Source of the DNA: Candidatus Latescibacterota bacterium
Lineage (GTDB): Bacteria; Latescibacterota; UBA2968; GCA-2709665
Length of the DNA stretch: 64,000 nucleotides
Direction of reading: 5' to 3'
NCBI GenBank assembly: GCA_965219995.1
Contig: CBDCOX010000002.1
Span: 5,184,001 to 5,248,000 of the forward strand
Positions within the stretch are counted from its first letter, which is position 1. Each line of letters begins with the position of its first letter. Below, in pieces: positions 8,787 through 26,492 of this stretch. Under the pieces are notes generated by a model. It did no database searches and was not told the origin of the DNA. It saw only the letters and a list, made by a program, of their open reading frames with translations. Made by a program: the position numbers and the translations under genes.

Positions 8787-9946
8787 GTCCCGGCGAGCCG
8801 CCTGGGCAAATCGGTCACCTCGTCCGGCTCCGTGCGTGGGCCAAGAATCTCTGCGAGGCTCAAGCCGCACTCCAACAAGGCATGGACATCCGGCACAGAC
8901 GTGGCGGGCAACGCCACCGTCCCGTCGTTTCCCGGCGTGAGCAGCACAACCTCGTCAACGCCAAGCCCCGGATCTTCCAGGATCTCATTCGAGTGGGTCG
9001 TCAGGAGGATCTGGGGGCCACCAGCGCCCGCGACACGATTGAAGACCGTCGGCAACTGCTTCACCACGGACGTGTGGAGTGATAACTCCGGCTCCTCCAG
9101 CAGCACGGGGCCCCGACCCCATTCTCCCTCCAGCAATGACCAGAGCAGGCCGATCATTCGCAGCGTACCGTCCGAGAACAGCCGTTCGTCCTGGATGGCC
9201 GGGTGGGAACGCCAGTGTTCGTAGCGGGCTCCCAGATGCCAATGCCCGATCTCGTCCTGAACGAGTTCGATCTGGTCCATCTGTGGAACCGCCGCCCGCA
9301 GTCCCTCCCCGATTCTCCGCAGGCGGTGAGATCGCGTGGTCGAAGGGGTCCTGGCCATCCTGAGCAGCAGGTCCGACCCGTAGGGGTCCTCTCGCACGCT
9401 GCCGGCACGCTCGGGCTCACGAATCAGGTGCGGGACGAGATGTAGGTAACGAACGGACCCCAGGAACTCCGAAATCTCCCGAAAGTCCCTGTTCGCGTTC
9501 ACCTGTTCCAGGTGGGTCTGAGTCATGCGCTCTGGATCGTCCTCGTCCTCCGGGGTCGGCCGCTCGAGGACAGGTCGCCCGCGGTTGCAGACAATCTCGT
9601 GCGTCAAAACCGGTCGATGACGCCCACGCTGCTCGGCGGTGAACGTCATCTCGTAGCTCCACTCGTCCGGGCACTCATCGCTCCCGATGCTGATGTGGAT
9701 GGTCACGCGCCCGTGGTTGTAGTTTCGTGCTGCCAGACAGCGCAGGCGCGGGATGCCTCCACGAGTCTCCACGGCATCTTGAAAGCCGCCTGCCGGCGAC
9801 GCGATCTGCTTCAGGAACCGGAGTGCGTCCAGCAGGTTGGACTTCCCTGACGCATTCGGGCCAACGATCACCAGCCGCTCGCGCAGGTCGAAATCCGCCT
9901 GCTTGAAGTTGCGCCAGTTCTTCAGCGTGAGATGAGTGATTCGCAT
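8783..9946 (-). CDS. ABC/AAA_21-type (RecF/SMC-like) ATPase
   Basis: MRITHLTLKNWRNF, GPNASGKSN (Walker A), FSDGT (signature), LLEEPE (Walker B), TTHS (H-loop). Confidence 0.92.
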   Translation of the reverse strand: MRITHLTLKNWRNFKQADFDLRERLVIVGPNASGKSNLLDALRFLKQIASPAGGFQDAVETRGGIPRLRCLAARNYNHGRVTIHISIGSDECPDEWSYEMTFTAEQRGRHRPVLTHEIVCNRGRPVLERPTPEDEDDPERMTQTHLEQVNANRDFREISEFLGSVRYLHLVPHLIREPERAGSVREDPYGSDLLLRMARTPSTTRSHRLRRIGEGLRAAVPQMDQIELVQDEIGHWHLGARYEHWRSHPAIQDERLFSDGTLRMIGLLWSLLEGEWGRGPVLLEEPELSLHTSVVKQLPTVFNRVAGAGGPQILLTTHSNEILEDPGLGVDEVVLLTPGNDGTVALPATSVPDVHALLECGLSLAEILGPRTEPDEVTDLPRRLAGT

Positions 9947-13913: not shown

Positions 13914-14912
13914 TCATACCCCAACCGCCGCGGGCAGATGGCGCCGCGCGACGCGCCGGCCGATGCCGGTGAGCACCTCGTAGGCAATGGTGTCCGACCA
14001 CGCGGCGACCTCGTCGACGCCCACCGTCGGGCCGAAGAACTCGACCCAGTCACCCCTTTCGACGGCGATGCCGGTGGCGTCGACCTGGGTCAGGTCCATC
14101 GACACCCGACCCAGGATAGGCAGCCGGACGCCGCGGACGGCGACCTCGCCCCGATTCGACAGCAGCCGCGGGACGCCGTCGGCGTAGCCCGCGCCGACGA
14201 CCGCCACCGTCGTGTCCCGCGCGAGGACGCGCGACGCCCCGTAGCCCACGCTCTCTCCGGCCCGCACCTCACGCACCTGCAGGACCTGGCCCTCCAGCGT
14301 CGCGACGCACCGCATCGGATTGTCCCGGTCGCTGTAGGGATTGCCGCCGTACAGGCCTATACCGGGCCGGCCGATCCCCCGCACGCCGTTCAGGACGCCG
14401 GCCGAGTTCGCGATACTGACCGGGACCCCGGGGAAACGGGCCGCGACGGTCTCGAAACGCTCGAGCTGCACGGCGTTCATCGGATGATCCGGCGTGTCGG
14501 CACAGGCCAGGTGCGTCAGCAGCAGGACCACCTCCGGGTGGTCCGGCACGTCTTGCGGTGCGAAACCGAGGCGCTGCATGCCCGTGTCCACGTGGAACGC
14601 CACCGGCCCCGCGCGAAGCTGCGACGGCTGGTTGACGACGGGAACGAGGCCGTCCGCGGAGGCCTCTCCCGAGAAGACAAAGATGTCGCAATCCCCGGCG
14701 AGCGTCTCCCGCAGGGCGAGTCCCTCCGCCTCGGTCGCGACGAAGAACCGGGTGCAGTCCTCCGCCGCCAGCCGCGCGGCCACCGCTTCCATCCCGAGCC
14801 CGTAGGCATCGGCCTTGACGACCGCCGCCACCCCGTCCGGCGCGCGCGCCCGGAACGCGCGGTAGTTGGCCGCGAGCGCATCGAGGTCGACGGTCAGGCG
14901 CGCCAGCGTCAC
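13914..14912 (-). CDS. alr: Alanine racemase
   Basis: AVVKADAYGLG, DTGMQRLG, THLACAD, RPGIGLYG, VGYGA, GYADG, GRVSMD, TIAYEVLT. Confidence 0.95.
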   Translation of the reverse strand: MTLARLTVDLDALAANYRAFRARAPDGVAAVVKADAYGLGMEAVAARLAAEDCTRFFVATEAEGLALRETLAGDCDIFVFSGEASADGLVPVVNQPSQLRAGPVAFHVDTGMQRLGFAPQDVPDHPEVVLLLTHLACADTPDHPMNAVQLERFETVAARFPGVPVSIANSAGVLNGVRGIGRPGIGLYGGNPYSDRDNPMRCVATLEGQVLQVREVRAGESVGYGASRVLARDTTVAVVGAGYADGVPRLLSNRGEVAVRGVRLPILGRVSMDLTQVDATGIAVERGDWVEFFGPTVGVDEVAAWSDTIAYEVLTGIGRRVARRHLPAAVGV

Positions 14913-15066: not shown

Positions 15067-17073
15067 CTACAACCCGAGCAGGCCGAGCAGTTCCTCTCGG
15101 GACAGCGTCGCCGAGAGATCGATGGTGACATCGTCGATGAGTTGGTCGAACAGAGCCTGTTTCTTCGCCAGCAACCGGTCGATTCGTTCCTCGATGGTGT
15201 CGACGCACATGTACTTGACCACGTGTACCTTGACCGTCTGACCGATGCGATGCACGCGATCCTCGGCCTGCTTCTCGACCGCCGGATTCCACCATCGGTC
15301 GAGATGAAACACGTACGACGCTTCCTGCAGATTCAGGCCGACGCCACCCACGCCGAGCGATACGATCAGCGCCCGATGACCGGGGCGGGTTCTGAACGCA
15401 TCCACCAACGCCGGCCGGTCGGGGGCCGGCGTATCCCCTGTCAGGACTACCGGGTCGAACTCGGCGAGGCGCCTGGACGCCAGCCCCACGCCAGCCGTCG
15501 CGCTGACGTACTGCGAGAACACCACCGCCTTGTGGCCTCGTCCCGACAGTGCAGCGAGCCGTTCCGCGATGTCGTCCAGCTTGCTGGAGTCGCCGGTTCT
15601 CGGATCGGCATTGCAGATCTGCTTGAGCCGGGTGATCAGCTCGAGGACATGCACGATGGTCACATCCCCGCCAAGGGCCTTGAGGTAGACGATCCCGTCC
15701 CGTTCGGCGCGGTCGTAGCTGGCCCGCTGCCCGGAGGACAACTCGATGTCCCGACGGGTCACGAGCTTGTCCGGCAGGTCCTCCAGGACATCGGACTTGC
15801 GGCGGCGCAGTTGCAACTCACGGTGCCGGGCGAAAAGCGCTGGACCCGGCGCGTAGCGCTTGAGTGGCACACTGCCGTCGTGATCGACGAACTCCATCAC
15901 CGAGGCCAACTCGTCCTCGCGGTTTTCCACGGGTGTGCCGGTCAACGCCCAAGAGCGCACTCGGCCCAAACGCTTCACGGCTTCGCTGGTTTCGACGCCG
16001 CGGTTCTTGATCCGCTGAGCCTCGTCCGCCACCACCGTGTCCCAGGCCCGGCGCACCTCCTGGCGCCAAGCATCCGCGCGCAACACACCGTAGCTCGTGA
16101 GCGTGACGTCCGGTGCGGCCCGCCACTTCCACGCGCGCTCCGCCGCGGAACCGCGCACGACGATGGCCGTGAGTTCCGGCGCCCATCTCGCGATCTCGCG
16201 CCGCCATTGGTCGAGGATGCTGGTGGGCGCGACGACCAGGACCCGGCCCAAGCCGCCCCGCGACCGCCGTATGCGCAAGGCCGCGATGACCTGGATGGTC
16301 TTGCCGAGCCCCATGTCGTCCGCGAGCAACAGCCCCGGCATGTCGAGCAACGCGCGCACGCCCTCTTGCTGGAACGGCATCAGCGGGGCCGGCCAGGACA
16401 GCGGGCCCGACCCGTCGGCGGGAGAATCGCACAGGTCGGGGGGAGGACAGAGAATGTGGCGCAGCCGCCCGGGCAGATCGGGTGTTCCCGAGTCCGGAGG
16501 GGAGGTCTCCGTCAGCGGCAGCGTAACGGTCACGGCGAAACCCGGGATCGTGGTCACCCCACGCACCCGGCCATCCCCGAACGCCGCATCCGCCGCCACC
16601 GATACACGGCTCAACGGCTCGAGTCCGCGGGCGTCGGCCGACAGGCGCCGCATGGTCCGTTCGGCGACCGCAGTGGGTTCCCGCGCCCACGACGGCATCT
16701 GCGGCGCGCTTCCCGCCGCGTGCTCGGGAATCCGGTACACGGGCACCTGCACTGCGGCGGCAGTGGATCCGTCGAGTTCCTCCGCCGCTGCCACGATCAG
16801 CACTGGCCGTTCCGGTCCGCCGTCGAGCAGCGCGTCGATGGCCGCGCGCAACGGGTACGAGGCCCCCACCGGCGCGTCGGTTCGGGCGGCTTCAAAGCTG
16901 GCGAACCGGAAACGGATCGGCGTGCCGTCGACGCCTGACTCGAACAGCGCCACACGCGATCCGGAGCCGTCCGGCGCCCGGGACACCCGCAACCACGCTA
17001 CCGACCCGGTATCCGGCCGCTGCGGCGCAACGACCCCACGGTCCGCAACCGCAATTCCCCCTTCCCGGTTCAC
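15067..17073 (-). CDS. SNF2-family (SF2) helicase/translocase
   Basis: LADDMGLGKT, DEAQ, TGTPVEN, LRRRK, FSQ, GLNLQEA, WWNPAVEKQAEDRVHRIGQ. Start placed at GTG 17073, which overlaps the upstream stop. Confidence 0.9.
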   Translation of the reverse strand: MNREGGIAVADRGVVAPQRPDTGSVAWLRVSRAPDGSGSRVALFESGVDGTPIRFRFASFEAARTDAPVGASYPLRAAIDALLDGGPERPVLIVAAAEELDGSTAAAVQVPVYRIPEHAAGSAPQMPSWAREPTAVAERTMRRLSADARGLEPLSRVSVAADAAFGDGRVRGVTTIPGFAVTVTLPLTETSPPDSGTPDLPGRLRHILCPPPDLCDSPADGSGPLSWPAPLMPFQQEGVRALLDMPGLLLADDMGLGKTIQVIAALRIRRSRGGLGRVLVVAPTSILDQWRREIARWAPELTAIVVRGSAAERAWKWRAAPDVTLTSYGVLRADAWRQEVRRAWDTVVADEAQRIKNRGVETSEAVKRLGRVRSWALTGTPVENREDELASVMEFVDHDGSVPLKRYAPGPALFARHRELQLRRRKSDVLEDLPDKLVTRRDIELSSGQRASYDRAERDGIVYLKALGGDVTIVHVLELITRLKQICNADPRTGDSSKLDDIAERLAALSGRGHKAVVFSQYVSATAGVGLASRRLAEFDPVVLTGDTPAPDRPALVDAFRTRPGHRALIVSLGVGGVGLNLQEASYVFHLDRWWNPAVEKQAEDRVHRIGQTVKVHVVKYMCVDTIEERIDRLLAKKQALFDQLIDDVTIDLSATLSREELLGLLGL

Positions 17074-18113
17074 GCCGGCCGTGGGGTCAGCACGAGGTCG
17101 GTGCCGAAACCCAATCCCCCGACCTCGGCCGCCGCGCGCATCTGCTTCTCTTTCGTCGCGTTGTTGCTGTTGGTCGCGAGCCACCAGCCACCGACGAGCT
17201 CCGTGGCGTGCTCCCGCAGGTCTGGCCTGTGAGGGTAAAGCGCCTCGGGGTTCCGAGCGATGTACCGACGCGTTCTGTCGCCACGCTCTCGACCAGCGAA
17301 GACCGGGTGCGCGGCGCATCGTTCCAGAAACGTCTCGTCACGCGCGTGCAGATCCCGCAAGACCACCACCAGCGCGTCCTTCATGTTCGCGAAGTCGTGC
17401 TCCCGACCCTCGACCGTGACCGTCCCCCGCCTGTGCGTCCGGCGTCGCGTCCCGGAACCTGACGCCGGGATCGAAGCGCGCGGACCGGGCGCCGCTTTCG
17501 CAAGGAAGCACCTGACGTCGCCAGCATCGGGCCTGACACCAGCCGAGTCCCACACTTCATCGCGGAGCAGTTCCACCAACTGGCCGTCCGCCCGCGACAC
17601 CAGCCGCTGCCAGGCCCGCGGAATGGCGCGCCGCATCACCGCTTCCTTGACCGAAGCGCCAGAGACGACGTGCCCGCTCGACAGAAAACGGTCCAGAACC
17701 TCCGCAGTGTCCTCGCTCGTCCGCAAGTCCAGCGCGAAAACCGGTTCCGCATCTTCTCCGTCTTCCGCGAAGAACAGCCGCCATGTCGGGCCATCGGTCA
17801 CAAGCAGCAAAGGAACGCCCGCGCGCCGCGCCCGCGGGAGAACCTCCGTAACGGCGTTCCCCTCGCGCCAGCGCCCTTCGAGCTCGACGACGCAGTGCGG
17901 GCGTGCCAACGGCGTGCCGCACAGCGCAAGATCAACGCGATGCCGCCCCAGGGCAAAGTCCGGCACCACGGCGGAGGTGTCGAACACGTCCCACCCCAGT
18001 TCCTGGAGTAGGGGCAGGACCATGCCGTTGAGCACCGCCTGGCGTCCCCTTGCGGGACTCGCGCCGAACCGCCCGACGGCTTCCGCGATGCGCCGCTGCA
18101 GCGAGGCGTTCAC
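17070..18113 (-). CDS. HsdR_N-like restriction-endonuclease-fold domain (altered catalytic motif) fused to a C-terminal SeqA-like DNA-binding domain
   Basis: N-terminus VLPLLQELGWDVFD...VVPD...RVDLAL...VELE...VTDGPTWRLF; C-terminus RTRRYIARNPEAL...GWWLATNSNNATK resembles SeqA GRTRVYFA...YWVITNTNTGRK. Confidence 0.65.
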   Translation of the reverse strand: MNASLQRRIAEAVGRFGASPARGRQAVLNGMVLPLLQELGWDVFDTSAVVPDFALGRHRVDLALCGTPLARPHCVVELEGRWREGNAVTEVLPRARRAGVPLLLVTDGPTWRLFFAEDGEDAEPVFALDLRTSEDTAEVLDRFLSSGHVVSGASVKEAVMRRAIPRAWQRLVSRADGQLVELLRDEVWDSAGVRPDAGDVRCFLAKAAPGPRASIPASGSGTRRRTHRRGTVTVEGREHDFANMKDALVVVLRDLHARDETFLERCAAHPVFAGRERGDRTRRYIARNPEALYPHRPDLREHATELVGGWWLATNSNNATKEKQMRAAAEVGGLGFGTDLVLTPRPA

Positions 18114-19396
18114 GCTTGCTCCGTCCCGCCCTCCGGGTCGCCTTCGAGGTCACGGTCCTCGCGGTAGTCGGGGGCGAACTGCTCCGTCTCGGTCTCCGGC
18201 ACGGCCTCGGGAACGAGTCGGCGAAGATCCCACGCGTTGATGGCGGCGCGGACCTTGTAACGCATCCGGCCCTGGAAGCCCGCGCCTCCGGCGTCCAGAT
18301 CGAGCGTCGGCGCCGCCCAGCCATGCGCCTTGCCGTAGATGCCCCGCAACCGCTCGACCGCCTGCGTCACGTCCACGTCCGTCGGCGCACGCAACGTTAC
18401 GCAGTCGTCGCGCAATGCCCGCATGCCCGCTTCGGCCAGATTCGCGAGGTGTGCGTGACGCAGGCTGCCGAGCAGTCGCGGACGTACGTTGTCGCAGTCC
18501 TGCTTGCCGTCCGCGCTGATGACGGCCGACGCGAAGTCCTCGGTCAGCGCACCCGCCACGGCGATGCCCCCCTGGGGGCCGTCGTCTTCTCCCAACCAAC
18601 GCGCCACTTCCGCGTAGGCACGCCCGCGTTGAAGGATCGAATAGGAGCCGATGAGTTCCAGCTCGTCCAGCAGGACGACCCATCCTCGATACCCGGCGCC
18701 CTTCACGAGTTCCAGCGCGAAACGGAGCCGCTGTCCCGGCAACTCCGCGGCGCGCGGCGCCCGGAAGCGGTGTCGCTGCAACTGTCCTATCTCCCGCAGC
18801 CCAGCGCGCACCCGGGATAGCAGGATACGGTCCCCGGCCCAGAAGGACTCGATCGCCCTCTTCAGGTCCGGGTCCCCGGAGTCCTGGTAGACGGTGAGCG
18901 TTGCCGGGAATATGCCGCTCAGCATCCCGCCGGCTGCCGCTTCCTCCGCCCATCGCAAGAGGGCGTACTCTCTTCCCGACGCCCGCAGAGCCTCCCCCAG
19001 TTCCTCGATCAGCCGGCCGCCCCGGTCCGGCATGAGGGCGCTCTCGATGGCTGCGGCGAACACCTTCCCCAGATCGTAAAGCGGGGTTTCCTTGCTCACG
19101 GCGACCTTGCTGCATACGAAGCCCTGCGCGAGCGCGAGTTCCTGAAAGTGCGCGAGCACGTGCGACTTTCCGGAACCGAAGTCGCCAGAGAGGAGCATGC
19201 CGCGGTGTCCGTCCGGAGCGGCGTCGAGGAGCGTCCGAAACCGCGCCTCCGCAGCCTCCTGATTGCAGCCGAGCAGGCGCACGGCAGCGCGGTTCGGCAC
19301 TCCGTTGCGCAGCGCCTCGAGGGCTTGCCGGCAGTCGCGTTGCGAGGCGTCGGCGGCCTCTCCGGGCCGGATGCCGGTGGCGTGCTGCCGGCTCAC
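18110..19396 (-). CDS. DUF2791/BrxD-like P-loop ATPase
   Basis: ALEALRNGVP, GDFGSGKSH (Walker A), GYRGWVVLLDELE (Walker B), RGRAY. Confidence 0.8.
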   Translation of the reverse strand: MSRQHATGIRPGEAADASQRDCRQALEALRNGVPNRAAVRLLGCNQEAAEARFRTLLDAAPDGHRGMLLSGDFGSGKSHVLAHFQELALAQGFVCSKVAVSKETPLYDLGKVFAAAIESALMPDRGGRLIEELGEALRASGREYALLRWAEEAAAGGMLSGIFPATLTVYQDSGDPDLKRAIESFWAGDRILLSRVRAGLREIGQLQRHRFRAPRAAELPGQRLRFALELVKGAGYRGWVVLLDELELIGSYSILQRGRAYAEVARWLGEDDGPQGGIAVAGALTEDFASAVISADGKQDCDNVRPRLLGSLRHAHLANLAEAGMRALRDDCVTLRAPTDVDVTQAVERLRGIYGKAHGWAAPTLDLDAGGAGFQGRMRYKVRAAINAWDLRRLVPEAVPETETEQFAPDYREDRDLEGDPEGGTEQA

Positions 19397-20361
19397 GGCG
19401 GCGCGCCCTCCAGGCCGAGTCGCACCAGCGCCGCCATCGGATTGACGTGGCGGCGGTCCCGCACGTCATCCATCACGCGCGTACGCAACGCGTCGTAGAT
19501 GCGCCAGCCGCGCGGCGCCTGATCGTCCACGAAGTCCGGGCTCGTCGCGACGATCAGCAGCGTGCCCGTCAGGCGGTCGATACCGTCGACGAACTCGCGC
19601 AGCAGTTCGTAGTGATCGATCGTCATGGCTCGCGTGTAGTAACGTGCTCCGTCCCGCGGGTTGCGCGCCACCGTGACACGGCTGGTGTCGAAGACGATGG
19701 CGGTGCCCGTGTAGGCGCTGGCCGCCAGCCACCGGAGGGCGGACTCCATGAAGTAGCGGGCCGTGGTCCGATTGATCGGCGTGCCGATCGAGAAGGGCCG
19801 CAGGGGGCCTATGCGGTTGTTCTCGCCGGTCAGCCAGTCCAGCAGGGGCTGACAGGCATCACGCCCACCCCCGGCGCCGCACTCCGCCATGCAAAGGTGA
19901 TACATCGCCCTGCGGAAGTCCCGTCCCATGCCCGGGTCGTCCAGGACGCGACCCTGCACTTCGCGCCGCAGCTCCAGCAGCACCGTCTGGACGGTCAGCC
20001 CGCTCTGCGCCCCGATGCCCTCGGCGACCGGCGTCGTCTCCTCCACGCCGTCCGCGACCATTCCCAGACCCGCGGCGAGGGCCAGGATGCGCCGCCGCGC
20101 GAGCAGCCACCAGTCGATCCGCGTCGCTATCGCGTGAAACACATCCTGCGGCATGTGGGCGCGGCAATCGCGGGCGTCGACCCGGACCGCGAAGTACCCC
20201 CGTTCGACACAACGCTGCGCCAGCCCCCGCGCCAGCTGCCGCCGCTCGGTCTCGTCGCCGACCGCGATCTTGAACGCGGCGCCGCCCTCCGCAACAAAAG
20301 TCCGCAAGTACTCGCGGTCCAGAACGTCGAGCCAACGCTCGACAGATATGCCGTGCTGCAT
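19393..20361 (-). CDS. Degenerate DUF2791/BrxD-like paralogue
   Basis: EYLRTFVAEGGAAFKIAVG precedes the P-loop position but GKT/S is missing; WLTGE, YTGTAIVFD, YELLREFVDGID and YDALRTRV are DUF2791-like. ATG overlaps the upstream TGA (TGATG). Confidence 0.65.
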   Translation of the reverse strand: MQHGISVERWLDVLDREYLRTFVAEGGAAFKIAVGDETERRQLARGLAQRCVERGYFAVRVDARDCRAHMPQDVFHAIATRIDWWLLARRRILALAAGLGMVADGVEETTPVAEGIGAQSGLTVQTVLLELRREVQGRVLDDPGMGRDFRRAMYHLCMAECGAGGGRDACQPLLDWLTGENNRIGPLRPFSIGTPINRTTARYFMESALRWLAASAYTGTAIVFDTSRVTVARNPRDGARYYTRAMTIDHYELLREFVDGIDRLTGTLLIVATSPDFVDDQAPRGWRIYDALRTRVMDDVRDRRHVNPMAALVRLGLEGAPP

Positions 20362-21161
20362 CAACCTGCGTCGCTGAACTTGACGCCGTAGTACTCGAGG
20401 TTCTCCCCGGCCGGATCGACGAACGAGAACAGGTCCGCCGAACGAACCCGCGTTCCGGTCGAGGCGGGGAACGACACGACGAAGCCTCTTCTGGTCTCCC
20501 GCGGTCCCTTGGCATCGAGCGTGTAGATGTCCCGCGCGAAGTCGCTACGGTCGTAGTCCCGGCTCGCGCCCGGCAGGGCCGTCAGGACCTTGTAGATGCG
20601 TGCCAGCGGCAAGACGCGGCCACCGCCGCTCCCCGCCAGGTCCCCGCCCGCCTCCCGCAGCAGCTCGTCGTAAACCAGGTACAGCGTCTCGAGGAAGCGC
20701 GCGGGTGCAAAGCCGCTGGTCCGGCGCTGGTTACGCAGGAGTTGGGCCGCCAGGAACGAGGGACGGATACTCCTCAGGCGCTTGCGGTCGACCCGGACGG
20801 CGCGTTCCGCAGGCAGGATGCGCACCATGGACGGGTACGCGACCAGATAGCCGTCCCGCTCGTGGAGCGTCACCCCCGCCGCTTCCGCCGCCCCGCGCAG
20901 TTCTTCCGCGTATCCCGCCTCGAGGTATGCCTCTTCCTCCTGCGGCGCGAAAGGCCAGGCGGCGCCCGCGGTACGTACTTCGCCGTCAAGGGCTGCGCAT
21001 GCCAGGTCGAGATCCGCCTGGGCCTTGCGTAGCGCGCCGATGTTGCCCTCCCGAGCGGCTTTCGCCATTGCCCGGGCCTTGCCGGCGACGCCGGCCGCCG
21101 CCTTGCGAGTCGCCTCCGCGACCGCCTCCGCGCCCTCGAAAGCCTGTTCGATCACGTGCAT
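20361..21161 (-). CDS. Hypothetical protein (N-terminal helical/coiled-coil, possible C-terminal winged helix); first gene of the five-gene operon
   Basis: 266-aa ORF with natural composition, coupled to the next gene. Family not recognised. Confidence 0.75.
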   Translation of the reverse strand: MHVIEQAFEGAEAVAEATRKAAAGVAGKARAMAKAAREGNIGALRKAQADLDLACAALDGEVRTAGAAWPFAPQEEEAYLEAGYAEELRGAAEAAGVTLHERDGYLVAYPSMVRILPAERAVRVDRKRLRSIRPSFLAAQLLRNQRRTSGFAPARFLETLYLVYDELLREAGGDLAGSGGGRVLPLARIYKVLTALPGASRDYDRSDFARDIYTLDAKGPRETRRGFVVSFPASTGTRVRSADLFSFVDPAGENLEYYGVKFSDAG

Positions 21162-21333
21162 CCTGCGTCCCGCCCGTTGCTCGACCGGAATATAGCATCG
21201 CGATCCGCCGCCGGTTCAACGGTCCGGCCGGCGCCACGCCCCCGGAGAGTTCTTGCCAGGATCTGCTCTCGGGGTCGAACGGCCTCCGGCTGTCTGCGGT
21301 TAGACTGCGCATCCGCTCGGACCTGGAGCACAC

Positions 21334-22254
21334 ATGAACTCACCCCCGCGCGCAATGGGCATCCTGCTCACTGCACTTTGCTGTGCGGCGTGGCCCACCG
21401 CCGCCGACCTTCTCGACCGCGTCGAGCACAAGTACGCCGACAACGACGGCGTCTCCATCCACTACGCCCTCGCGGGGGAAGGCCCCCTCGTCGTCGCGAT
21501 CCACGGATTTCCGGACTTCTGGTACACGTGGCGCGACCAGATGGAGGCGCTGGAAGGGGACTACCGCATCGCGGCGGTCGACCTGCGCGGCTACAACCTG
21601 AGTGACCAGCCCGAAGGCGTCGCGAGCTACGCGATGCCGAACCTGGTGGCCGACATCGCGGCGGTCATCGCCGCCGAGGGCGAGGACTCCGCGGTCGTCG
21701 TCGGGCACGACTGGGGCGGAGCGATCACCTGGAACGTCGCCATGGCGCGACCGGACCTGGTCGATGCGCTCGTGATCCTCAACCTGCCCCACCCGGCGGG
21801 GCTCAGCCGGGAACTCGCGACCAATCCCCAGCAGCAGGAGAACAGCCAGTACGCGCGGAACTTCCAGCAACCCGATGCGCACACCTACCTGACCGCCGAG
21901 GCGCTGACGGGGTGGGTGCGGGACGAGACCGCCAAGGCGCACTACGTCGCCGCTTTCGAACGGTCCGACTTCGAAGCGATGCTGAACTACTACAAGGCCA
22001 ACTATCCTCGAGCCTCGGGCGACGCGATGGCGCCGGGACCGGAGTTCCCCAAGGTGCAGGCTCCCGTGCTGATGTTCCACGGCCTCGACGACCAGGCGCT
22101 GCTGCCGGGCGGCCTGAACGGAACCTGGGACTGGCTGGAGCGCGACCTCACCCTGGTGACCATCCCCGGCGCCGGGCACTTCGTGCAGCAGGACGCGAGC
22201 CGGCTCGTGTCCGAGACGATGGAGGACTGGCTGGGACGGCGGGTGGGAGGTTGA
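21334..22254 (+). CDS. Exported alpha/beta hydrolase, epoxide-hydrolase-like
   Basis: [24 protein letters not shown] (Asp nucleophile), NYYKAN, GHFVQ; N-terminal signal peptide. Confidence 0.92.
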
Positions 22255-26144: not shown

Positions 26145-26240
26145 CCATCGCCGCCGGGTCGGGCGTGTCGGAGGAACGGTATTTCCGACATTCGGAAACT
26201 CTGCTAGCCTGTGCGAGTGTCCGGCCAACCGAGCCTACAG

Positions 26241-26492
26241 GTGCCCCAGACGCTGATCGTATCCAACCGCGGCCAGATCACGCTCCCGGCCGCAACCCGC
26301 AAGCGCCTTGGCATCAAGGGCGGCGATGTCGTCATCATGGAATACAGAGACAACGAAATCGTGCTCAAGCCAGGCGTCGTGCTTGAGGTCGAGATCTACG
26401 CCGACGAGCAGATCGCGGAGTGGGTTGCCGCCGACAGGCTCGATGACGAGGAGCGCGAACGCATCGTCGATGCCGTCACCCGTCCGAAGTGA
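26241..26492 (+). CDS. AbrB/MazE/SpoVT-family antitoxin
   Basis: SNRGQITLPAATRKRLGIKGGD motif; overlaps the toxin start. Confidence 0.88.
   Translation: MPQTLIVSNRGQITLPAATRKRLGIKGGDVVIMEYRDNEIVLKPGVVLEVEIYADEQIAEWVAADRLDDEERERIVDAVTRPK

Follow-up and report, generated by a model that had tools for sequence, protein, structure and literature searches.

An overlapping operon of BrxD-like ATPases and an SNF2 helicase in a Latescibacterota bacterium as a candidate ATPase-licensed defence module

What does an operon do that joins two BrxD-like ATPases to an SNF2 helicase and codes for neither a methylase nor PglZ? We addressed this question for a locus of Candidatus Latescibacterota bacterium on contig CBDCOX010000002.1, within a stretch of 64,000 nucleotides (positions 5,184,001 to 5,248,000; hereafter the window, ~69% G+C). 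The listing of open reading frames (ORFs) and their translation place five ORFs, genes A to E, on the minus strand within 15067-21161 (Table 1). A preliminary description had read them as a coupled five-gene candidate defence system with four overlapping junctions, and its coordinates and junction strings were exactly confirmed: on the minus strand, A and B are joined by TGATG at 20363-20359, and the B/C, C/D and D/E junctions are GTGA overlaps at 19393-19396, 18110-18113 and 17070-17073, respectively. Since all junctions overlap, A to E constitute one coupled operon. The third-position G+C of the five minus-strand frames is 0.80-0.88, and we therefore take them as the coding frames; the long plus-strand ORFs overlying A-E did not pass the same third-position G+C filter. 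Comparative analysis indicates that four of the genes, A, B, C and E, form a conserved module. With moderate confidence, we read this module as a defence system in which an ATPase would license a helicase, both the defensive role and the formation of a complex being what we infer.

A scan seeded with A, covering one genome per species, returned 17 loci, whose gene content was determined by tblastn. The A-B-C order was present in all 17 of them, with E directly after A-B-C in 15, ~2.6 kb further on in L019 and missing in L017. The C-profile scan covered 185,579 species genomes and gave at least 575 pattern matches, with a relative of C encoded in at least 502 species genomes; the best 80 loci were kept, all of them from metagenome-assembled genomes (MAGs). 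The gene order was A-B-C-E in 64 of these loci, A-B-C-D-E in one, A-B-C in 13 (two at contig ends) and B-C-E in two. A-B-C was thus found in 78/80 loci, both exceptions starting inside B at a contig end, and E was found beside A-B-C in 67/80. In loci without E, unrelated genes come next, except in L081, which is described below. Conservation of the neighbourhood around the 266-aa gene (A) and the DUF2791 pair, set as a check in the preliminary description, was clearly borne out by both scans, and these sequence comparisons indicate that A-B-C recurs beyond chance and that the core is a conserved four-gene module of A, B, C and E. The five-gene unit proposed earlier has to be reduced to these four, as D is in the operon in only 3/80 D loci and 1/80 C-found loci.

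Both ATPases belong to the BrxC_BrxD family (PF10923, DUF2791), as had been described: B (34.6 bits, matched via its C-terminal two thirds at profile positions 163-331) and C (61.7 bits) exceed the gathering cut-off of 22.2 bits. C carries the Walker A motif GDFGSGKS and the Walker B motif VVLLDELE, and GxFGxGKS and LLDE are invariant in 17/17 aligned members; the invariant residues are G74, G76, K77, S78, D244, E245 and R257, and conserved arginines are likewise found in 17/17. In B, Walker A is degenerate (GGAAFK, no GK[ST]) and FDT stands at the Walker B position, and both losses are shared by 17/17 aligned B members, which have GGAAxK and D-N/T for D-E. The earlier observation that one ATPase keeps GDFGSGKS and LLDE and its paralogue has lost Walker A therefore extends to the whole of both alignments. 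On these motifs, C is an intact BrxD-type (ORC/Cdc6-class) AAA+ ATPase and B a conserved pseudo-ATPase of the BrxD/DUF2791 type, and on our best reading C alone of the pair could hydrolyse ATP. We further compared C with models of named proteins. It scored 49.3 bits against the PADLOC model of BrxD, 49.8 bits against NCBIfam NF033438 BREX_BrxD, whose equivalog cut-off is 350, and 18.5 bits against the SngB model over residues 63-107 (the P-loop) only; its best match among sequences of solved structures was TnsC, in the P-loop region only (E 0.0063). A direct hhalign comparison of B with C aligned the Walker B regions (E 0.0029, probability 10.5%). No PADLOC model matched B or D, and no PHROG family matched A, B, C or D. 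In one locus (L007:1122-3368), B and C lie in one reading frame with a single stop between them, for which fusion, read-through or a sequencing artefact is possible.

The identification of an SNF2 protein in the operon also held. The core of E matches SNF2-rel_dom (PF00176, 155.7 bits) and Helicase_C (PF00271, 62.9 bits), and motifs I (DDMGLGKT), II (DEAQ), III (LTGTP), V and VI (QAEDRxHRIGQ) are invariant in 15/15 aligned members, indicating that E is an intact SNF2 motor. No nuclease domain was detected in E by Pfam or in the alignment. The matches of E to the ZorD, DpdE, DrmD, HmaA and BrxH models either run via the helicase core or stay far under the curated cut-offs: with PADLOC, E scored 254 bits against ZorD, 229 bits against DpdE and 59.4 bits against HmaA (via the core only), and with the NCBIfam equivalogs 161.9 against ZorD NF041790 (cut-off 1500) and 67.8 against DrmD NF038318 (cut-off 950). 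SngC was not among the best 25 of the 40 PADLOC matches of E. In 9 loci the N-terminal domain of E is a gene of its own (~180 aa; hmmsearch E 6e-39 to 2e-54), placed between C and a shortened SNF2 gene, which argues that this domain is an autonomous module; an Atlas look-up returned weak leads to SWIM/SNF2-associated N-termini (scores 0.77-0.87). The split form occurs in L060, L062, L071, L073, L074, L076, L089, L093 and L099, at ~9260-9850 in most of them.

Gene A, present throughout the A-B-C loci, is the signature gene of the system. It has no family in Pfam, PADLOC, NCBIfam or PHROG. A search of Pfam and PADLOC at E<=0.1 gave nothing beyond a sub-threshold CATASP match, sequences of solved structures gave no match, and the Atlas look-up gave unnamed clusters only. 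The A family comprises 149 clusters at 90% identity, within the reach of the word index, and at 50% identity 813 clusters with E<=1e-3 and 588 with E<=1e-10; none of these clusters is named. The structure model of the whole protein (pLDDT 85.7) has a long hairpin followed by alpha/beta parts: an N-terminal helical hairpin (residues 3-66), an alpha/beta sandwich (~71-148) and a C-terminal winged-helix-like domain (~149-266). With the whole model, the fold search gave matches confined to the helical hairpin and Foldseek returned nothing. A second model of residues 68-266 (pLDDT 82.5) gave weak fold matches only, alpha/beta and winged-helix/kleisin-like, all under the noise mark, and Foldseek returned nothing significant for it; no enzyme fold emerged from these searches. 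Our best reading of the models is that A would be a non-enzymatic protein in which the helical hairpin precedes a small alpha/beta domain and a winged-helix-like one. The helical adaptor of the preliminary description thus survives in the N-terminal hairpin and falls short of the remainder, which has alpha/beta and winged-helix-like domains according to the weak fold matches. A PD-(D/E)xK nuclease was considered for A from E101, D103 and D125-x-K127 and was rejected: no nuclease fold was found in the 50 best VIA rows or by Foldseek, and these candidate residues are not invariant across the wider A family. Co-folding of A with B, and of A with residues 15-420 of C, gave a score of 0.00, which is uninformative in either direction.

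Gene D stands apart from the other four. Of 171 relatives of D, 80 were kept, and the A-B-C-D-E operon was found in 3 of them (L100, which is the contig of L003, L101 and L143); in 75 the vicinity is free of the other four genes, and in 2 the sole match nearby is on the opposite strand, to the helicase core of E. Among the A-found loci, a complete D was found in L003 alone, whose sequence is 95-98% identical to that of the window, and a fragment occurs in L004. D thus belongs to the operon in the window, in a near-identical MAG and in two further species, and we therefore regard it as an accessory gene confined to one small clade. No Pfam family matches D itself. Its 47 homologues share 35-47% identity (one 95%), many carry HsdR_N labels (PF04313/PF13588), some are named 'predicted type IV restriction endonuclease' by the JGI, and D has a conserved C-terminal domain with no assigned function. 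The homologues' Pfam labels suggest that D is a divergent relative of HsdR_N (PD-(D/E)xK fold), resembling type IV restriction endonucleases. In an alignment of 15 sequences, the lysine of D...ExK is kept in 10/10 non-operon homologues, and the five members of the operon clade have E, Q, H, H and H at this position, E being that of the window, which keeps D61. An E or Q at the lysine position of (D/E)xK is compatible with activity, as in BamHI and BglII. The preliminary reading of D as an HsdR_N/SeqA-like modification reader therefore stands for HsdR_N, through the labels of the homologues, and is left without support for the SeqA-like and modification-reader parts.

To what extent is the SNF2 helicase bound to the A-B-C triad? 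In L081:9821-15565, A-B-C is followed by a DEAD/MZB helicase of 1914 aa (DruE match 353.6 bits) that replaces the SNF2 gene. Weak C matches in more distant relatives led to two sister loci, L217:640-11879 and L218:7161-16365, whose genes are listed in Table 1. Both share an A-like gene and BrxD-like ATPases, two of them called as ORFs in L218 and one ORF with a second matching region in L217, which implies that the triad is older than the SNF2 variant, and the intact P-loops of the sister ATPases imply that the inactivity of B is derived. The occurrence of SNF2, DruE-like and BrxHI/SngC-like plus superfamily 1 (SF1) forms further implies that the helicase is exchangeable among relatives. The sister helicase of L217 also has a weak PD-(D/E)xK match.

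These architectures invite comparison with named systems. With the models of PADLOC v2 and NCBIfam, no named system was matched, as had been stated earlier, and A-B-C-E shares an ATPase-helicase logic with known systems but fails the defining features of BREX, Shango, Zorya, DISARM and Hma. In the part of PMC12839542 covered here, BrxD is an ORC/Cdc6 AAA+ protein in a tight dyad with the helicase BrxHI, with a proposed role as loader or activator. The operon resembles this dyad of BREX types 2 and 6 in pairing a stand-alone ORC/Cdc6-class PF10923 ATPase with a helicase. It differs in having no PglZ, PglX, PglW or BrxC, in having two ATPase paralogues, one of them dead, and an extra signature gene (A), in its SNF2 helicase as opposed to the Lhr/Ski2-like BrxHI, and in the score of C, which is far under the BrxD equivalog cut-off (49.8 versus 350 bits). 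The earlier statement that the operon lacks PglZ, PglX and BrxC was upheld by a Pfam scan of the five proteins together with a genome search: none of the five has a PglZ or a methyltransferase domain, the sole PF08665 (PglZ) match in the genome, a 530-aa open frame (L180, C2:1176980-1177558, 65.4 bits), lies ~4 Mb away, and for BrxC/PglY the genome-wide PF10923 matches fall only inside gene C. In the same part of that article, the inactive P-loop NTPase BrxB is proposed as a sensor in BREX. By analogy, the order of roles in A, B and C may resemble that of BrxA, BrxB and BrxC, namely a small DNA-binding protein, an inactive P-loop NTPase and an active ORC/Cdc6-type ATPase. This likeness is one of roles only: A and B have no BrxA or BrxB match at E<=0.1, and C has 428 aa as opposed to ~1200 aa in BrxC.

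Shango, a validated anti-phage system, combines a TerB-like protein with an ATPase and a DEAD/DEAH helicase, according to the part of 10.1101/2022.11.11.516204 covered here. Like our operon, it arranges three roles in sequence, with a small non-enzymatic protein followed by an ATPase and a helicase, and the SngB and SngC models match the ATPase (116 bits) and the helicase (243-244 bits) of the sister system. In contrast to Shango, the operon has a duplicated ATPase and a helicase of the SNF2 type, no TerB match was obtained for A, and C touches SngB at the P-loop only. Hma and the DUF499-centred BREX-related (BR) systems, as given in the covered part of PMC12839542, combine an ORC/Cdc6-class AAA+ protein, an SNF2 helicase and a methylase; the first two are also the core here. 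These systems need an N6-methyltransferase, a DUF499 ATPase and a helicase with TUDOR and restriction endonuclease (REase)-like domains, however, and none of these was found in the operon. E is akin to ZorD, DrmD, DpdE and DruE, the SNF2 or large superfamily 2 motors of defence systems, and matches their helicase core only. Zorya differs in that ZorA, ZorB and ZorC are absent from the five proteins and E is without the nuclease domain of ZorD; for DISARM, only DrmD models were matched, via the helicase core, and DrmA, DrmB and a methylase are missing. More generally, the partner genes of Zorya, DISARM, Dpd and Druantia are absent from the operon. The section list of PMC12839542, to which Supplementary Data S1 does not belong, contains no system of a stand-alone BrxD with SNF2, and the preprint 10.1101/2025.09.30.679545 makes no mention of SNF2, BrxD, ORC or Cdc6. 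Searches of the literature for DUF2791, BrxD, SNF2 and sponge defence, main texts and not supplements, gave no description of an A-B-C-E system.

Table 1. Positions and properties of the operon, its flanks and the genes of the sister loci (window coordinates unless a locus is named).
Feature	Position	Strand	Remarks
Gene A	20361..21161	-	266 aa
Gene B	19393..20361	-	322 aa from ATG; 323 aa if start at 20364
Gene C	18110..19396	-	428 aa
Gene D	17070..18113	-	347 aa
Gene E	15067..17073	-	668 aa from GTG; a longer ATG-started ORF extends to 17319
E, SNF2 ATPase core	15067..16389	-	residues ~229-668 plus stop codon
E, N-terminal domain	16474..17073	-	residues ~1-200
Alanine racemase (alr) flank	13914-14912		
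Alpha/beta-hydrolase-fold flank gene	21334-22254		divergent from A
Intergenic region between A and hydrolase gene	21162..21333	.	presumed operon promoter region, from position alone
Sister A-like gene	L218, L217		299 aa (L218), 311 aa (L217); A profile E 3e-11 and 2e-7; wider profile 1.6e-12 and 1.4e-9
Sister first BrxD-like ATPase	L218		431 aa; intact P-loop; PF10923 191, PADLOC BrxD 150, SngB 116 bits
Sister first BrxD-like ATPase	L217		region matched by tblastn at 24% identity to C, without a called ORF
Sister second BrxD-like ATPase	L218, L217		409 aa (L218), 487 aa (L217); intact P-loop
Sister helicase	L218, L217		1915 aa (L218), 1931 aa (L217); N-terminus BrxHI 297-307, SngC 243-244 bits; C-terminus SF1 helicase

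The operon is flanked by alr on one side and by a gene of the alpha/beta-hydrolase fold on the other. A simple promoter scan of the operon found no sigma-70-like site, and a promoter role of the intergenic region upstream of A is therefore presumed from its position only. The terminator scan gave a single terminator-like hairpin, inside B, and shuffled sequences gave more. About 5 kb from the operon, an ORF of 93 aa (window 26211-26492, plus strand) has a MazE/AbrB-type antitoxin domain (E 6.7e-12).

To examine the genomic surroundings of the relatives, we searched neighbouring ORFs against PADLOC. The first context set comprised 16 loci with 140 ORFs of at least 110 aa within ~8 kb (after exclusion of the 9 farthest ORFs; PADLOC E<=1e-10). 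PADLOC matches were found in 22 ORFs of 10 loci, or in 9/16 loci when an ankyrin-only one is excluded, and included a type I methylase, a type IIG restriction-modification enzyme, a methyl-directed REase with HNH, AbiE, AbiL, an AriA-like ATPase, a NERD helicase, IetA and candidate PDC systems; Pfam added ParDE, RES, transposases and an integrase. In 7/16 loci (L006, L008, L009, L014, L015, L016 and L018), a transposase, an integrase or a reverse transcriptase is encoded within 8 kb; no transposase or integrase recurs as a conserved neighbour, and the flanks vary between loci. In a second set of 26 further loci, restricted to the nearest two or fewer ORFs per side, PADLOC matches were found in 19/101 ORFs and 11/26 loci, compared with 3/92 ORFs and 3/26 places when the same rule was applied to 26 random places in the window's own genome (Fisher p 0.0006 for ORFs and 0.027 for loci). 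After removal of ankyrin, ABC and transporter-type matches, the excess per ORF was 14/101 versus 2/92 (p 0.0034). Because the control comes from a single genome and the ORFs within one locus are not independent, this excess is suggestive only. The enrichment in defence islands that had been set as a check is thus supported by the excess of such neighbours over the control and weakened by a per-locus contrast that proved fragile after filtering, as given below. Ankyrin-repeat genes adjoin the operon in L009, L011, L038 and L051. Two of the control places, in the same genome outside the window, contain a SoFic-like ORF (L204:12385-13605, 113.6 bits) and a PDC-S01-type AAA_14/DUF4143 ATPase (L206:12451-13794, 523 bits).

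How widely, and by what route, has the module spread? The labelled rows of C span 10 phyla. A FastTree phylogeny of C with 96 sequences (the window and 95 loci; four contigs are present twice) was mostly grouped by phylum, with 13 label changes, where 10 phyla require at least 9 and shuffling gives a mean of 49. Distribution is patchy at close range: among the other genomes with the same genus label, 7/14 have a strong C match, at 56-59% identity. In the loci L207-L214 of this label, the 20-kb regions from two genomes have 55-57% G+C, as opposed to 69% in the window, and the proteins of the alr and hydrolase flanks of the window had no match at E<=1e-30 in 5 same-genus-labelled genomes. Five DNA runs from two studies, all labelled sponge metagenome, contain DNA near-identical to that of the operon (shares 0.21-0.37), and one contig of 9720 nt spans the whole operon with 294 differences, which implies that the five-gene form exists in a close relative. 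The taxon list of the C loci presumably resembles sponge-associated communities. In two metatranscriptome libraries of one study, contigs match portions of B, C, D and E, with one running across the A/B junction at 95-98% likeness; DNA carry-over is possible, and these contigs are not proof of transcription.

Taken together, the neighbours and the architectures of the relatives suggest defence, and we consider it somewhat probable that the operon encodes an ATPase-licensed helicase defence module. The mechanism that we propose follows, by analogy, the logic proposed for BrxD-BrxHI in BREX types 2 and 6, and it corresponds to the ATPase-helicase pair of Shango. A, B and C would form a sensor/loader complex on DNA, in which B may be a fixed regulatory pseudo-subunit and ATP binding and hydrolysis by C would license or load the helicase; the N-terminal domain of E may serve as an independent docking or regulatory module, and the SNF2 motor would then act on foreign (phage or plasmid) DNA. 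More tentatively, and with less confidence than for the operon itself, A and the BrxD-like ATPase pair could be the sensor/loader core of an unnamed anti-phage superfamily with interchangeable helicases, spread over at least 10 bacterial phyla, whose SNF2 form would protect without a methylase or a dedicated nuclease, by ATP-licensed translocation.

Several results weigh against defence, and part of them would fit a cellular DNA-transaction module, in which the ATPase pair and a DNA-binding partner recruit SNF2 for repair, replication-transcription conflicts, RapA-like recycling of RNA polymerase or nucleoid remodelling. The wider surroundings of the operon in the window are metabolic (alr, a short-chain dehydrogenase/reductase, hydrolases and an E1 dehydrogenase), no defence genes adjoin it there, and 7/16 loci of the first set and 15/26 of the second have no defence-model neighbour. 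Domain scans, alignment and fold search found no nuclease or other obvious effector in the core, which is also without toxin and methylase. No match was found for A among 72,556 plasmid records or for C among 50,697 phage records. The phylum coherence of the C tree (13 changes, minimum 9) makes long vertical retention possible, which fits a housekeeping gene too. To these are added the 13/80 C-found loci in which no E adjoins A-B-C (two at contig ends), the weak support for B/C paralogy from profile comparison (hhalign probability 10.5%), the filtered per-locus contrast of 8/26 versus 2/26 (p 0.075), and the single-genome control with its non-independent ORFs. We nevertheless regard a cellular role as rather unlikely. 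The module is sporadic, with at least 502 of 185,579 species genomes and 7/14 other same-genus-labelled genomes, its defence-type neighbours exceed the control, transposases or integrases flank 7/16 loci, and the helicases of the related triads, DruE-like and BrxHI/SngC-like, are of families known from defence.

The mobile genes within 8 kb in 7 loci, together with the P-loop match of C to TnsC, would also suit a function in mobile elements, with the AAA+ pair acting as a TnsC-like target selector or regulator, or as a device for element maintenance or anti-defence. That explanation seems improbable to us: neighbouring transposases or integrases are not conserved, the flanks vary between loci, the plasmid (A) and phage (C) records gave no match, and A to D have no PHROG family. 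It is very improbable that the operon is a decayed remnant of BREX type 2 or 6, reduced to the BrxD-like genes and the helicase by loss of PglZ, PglX and BrxC. B and C do belong to PF10923, and BrxD normally accompanies a helicase (PMC12839542, in the part covered), yet this explanation is already contradicted by a methylase-free and PglZ-free order conserved in 78/80 loci with intact motifs. In addition, the score of C lies far below the BrxD cut-off, the helicase is SNF2 and not an Lhr-like BrxHI, and the genome holds its only PglZ-domain ORF ~4 Mb away and no BrxC-type match outside gene C.

If the ATPase-licensed helicase module does serve defence, it would add a widespread family, with relatives in at least 502 species genomes, to those built on the ATPase-helicase dyad that is also found in BREX types 2 and 6 and in Shango. 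Being stripped of methylase, PglZ and TerB, this form could isolate the role of a BrxD-type ATPase for its helicase, a question that is open in BREX, and a core free of nuclease would point to immunity by translocation or remodelling and not by cutting. The pair of a live and a dead ATPase and the detachable N-terminal domain of the SNF2 protein provide direct experimental handles. If it does not serve defence, the operon would still represent a conserved, uncharacterised bacterial machine of ORC/Cdc6-like and SNF2 components.

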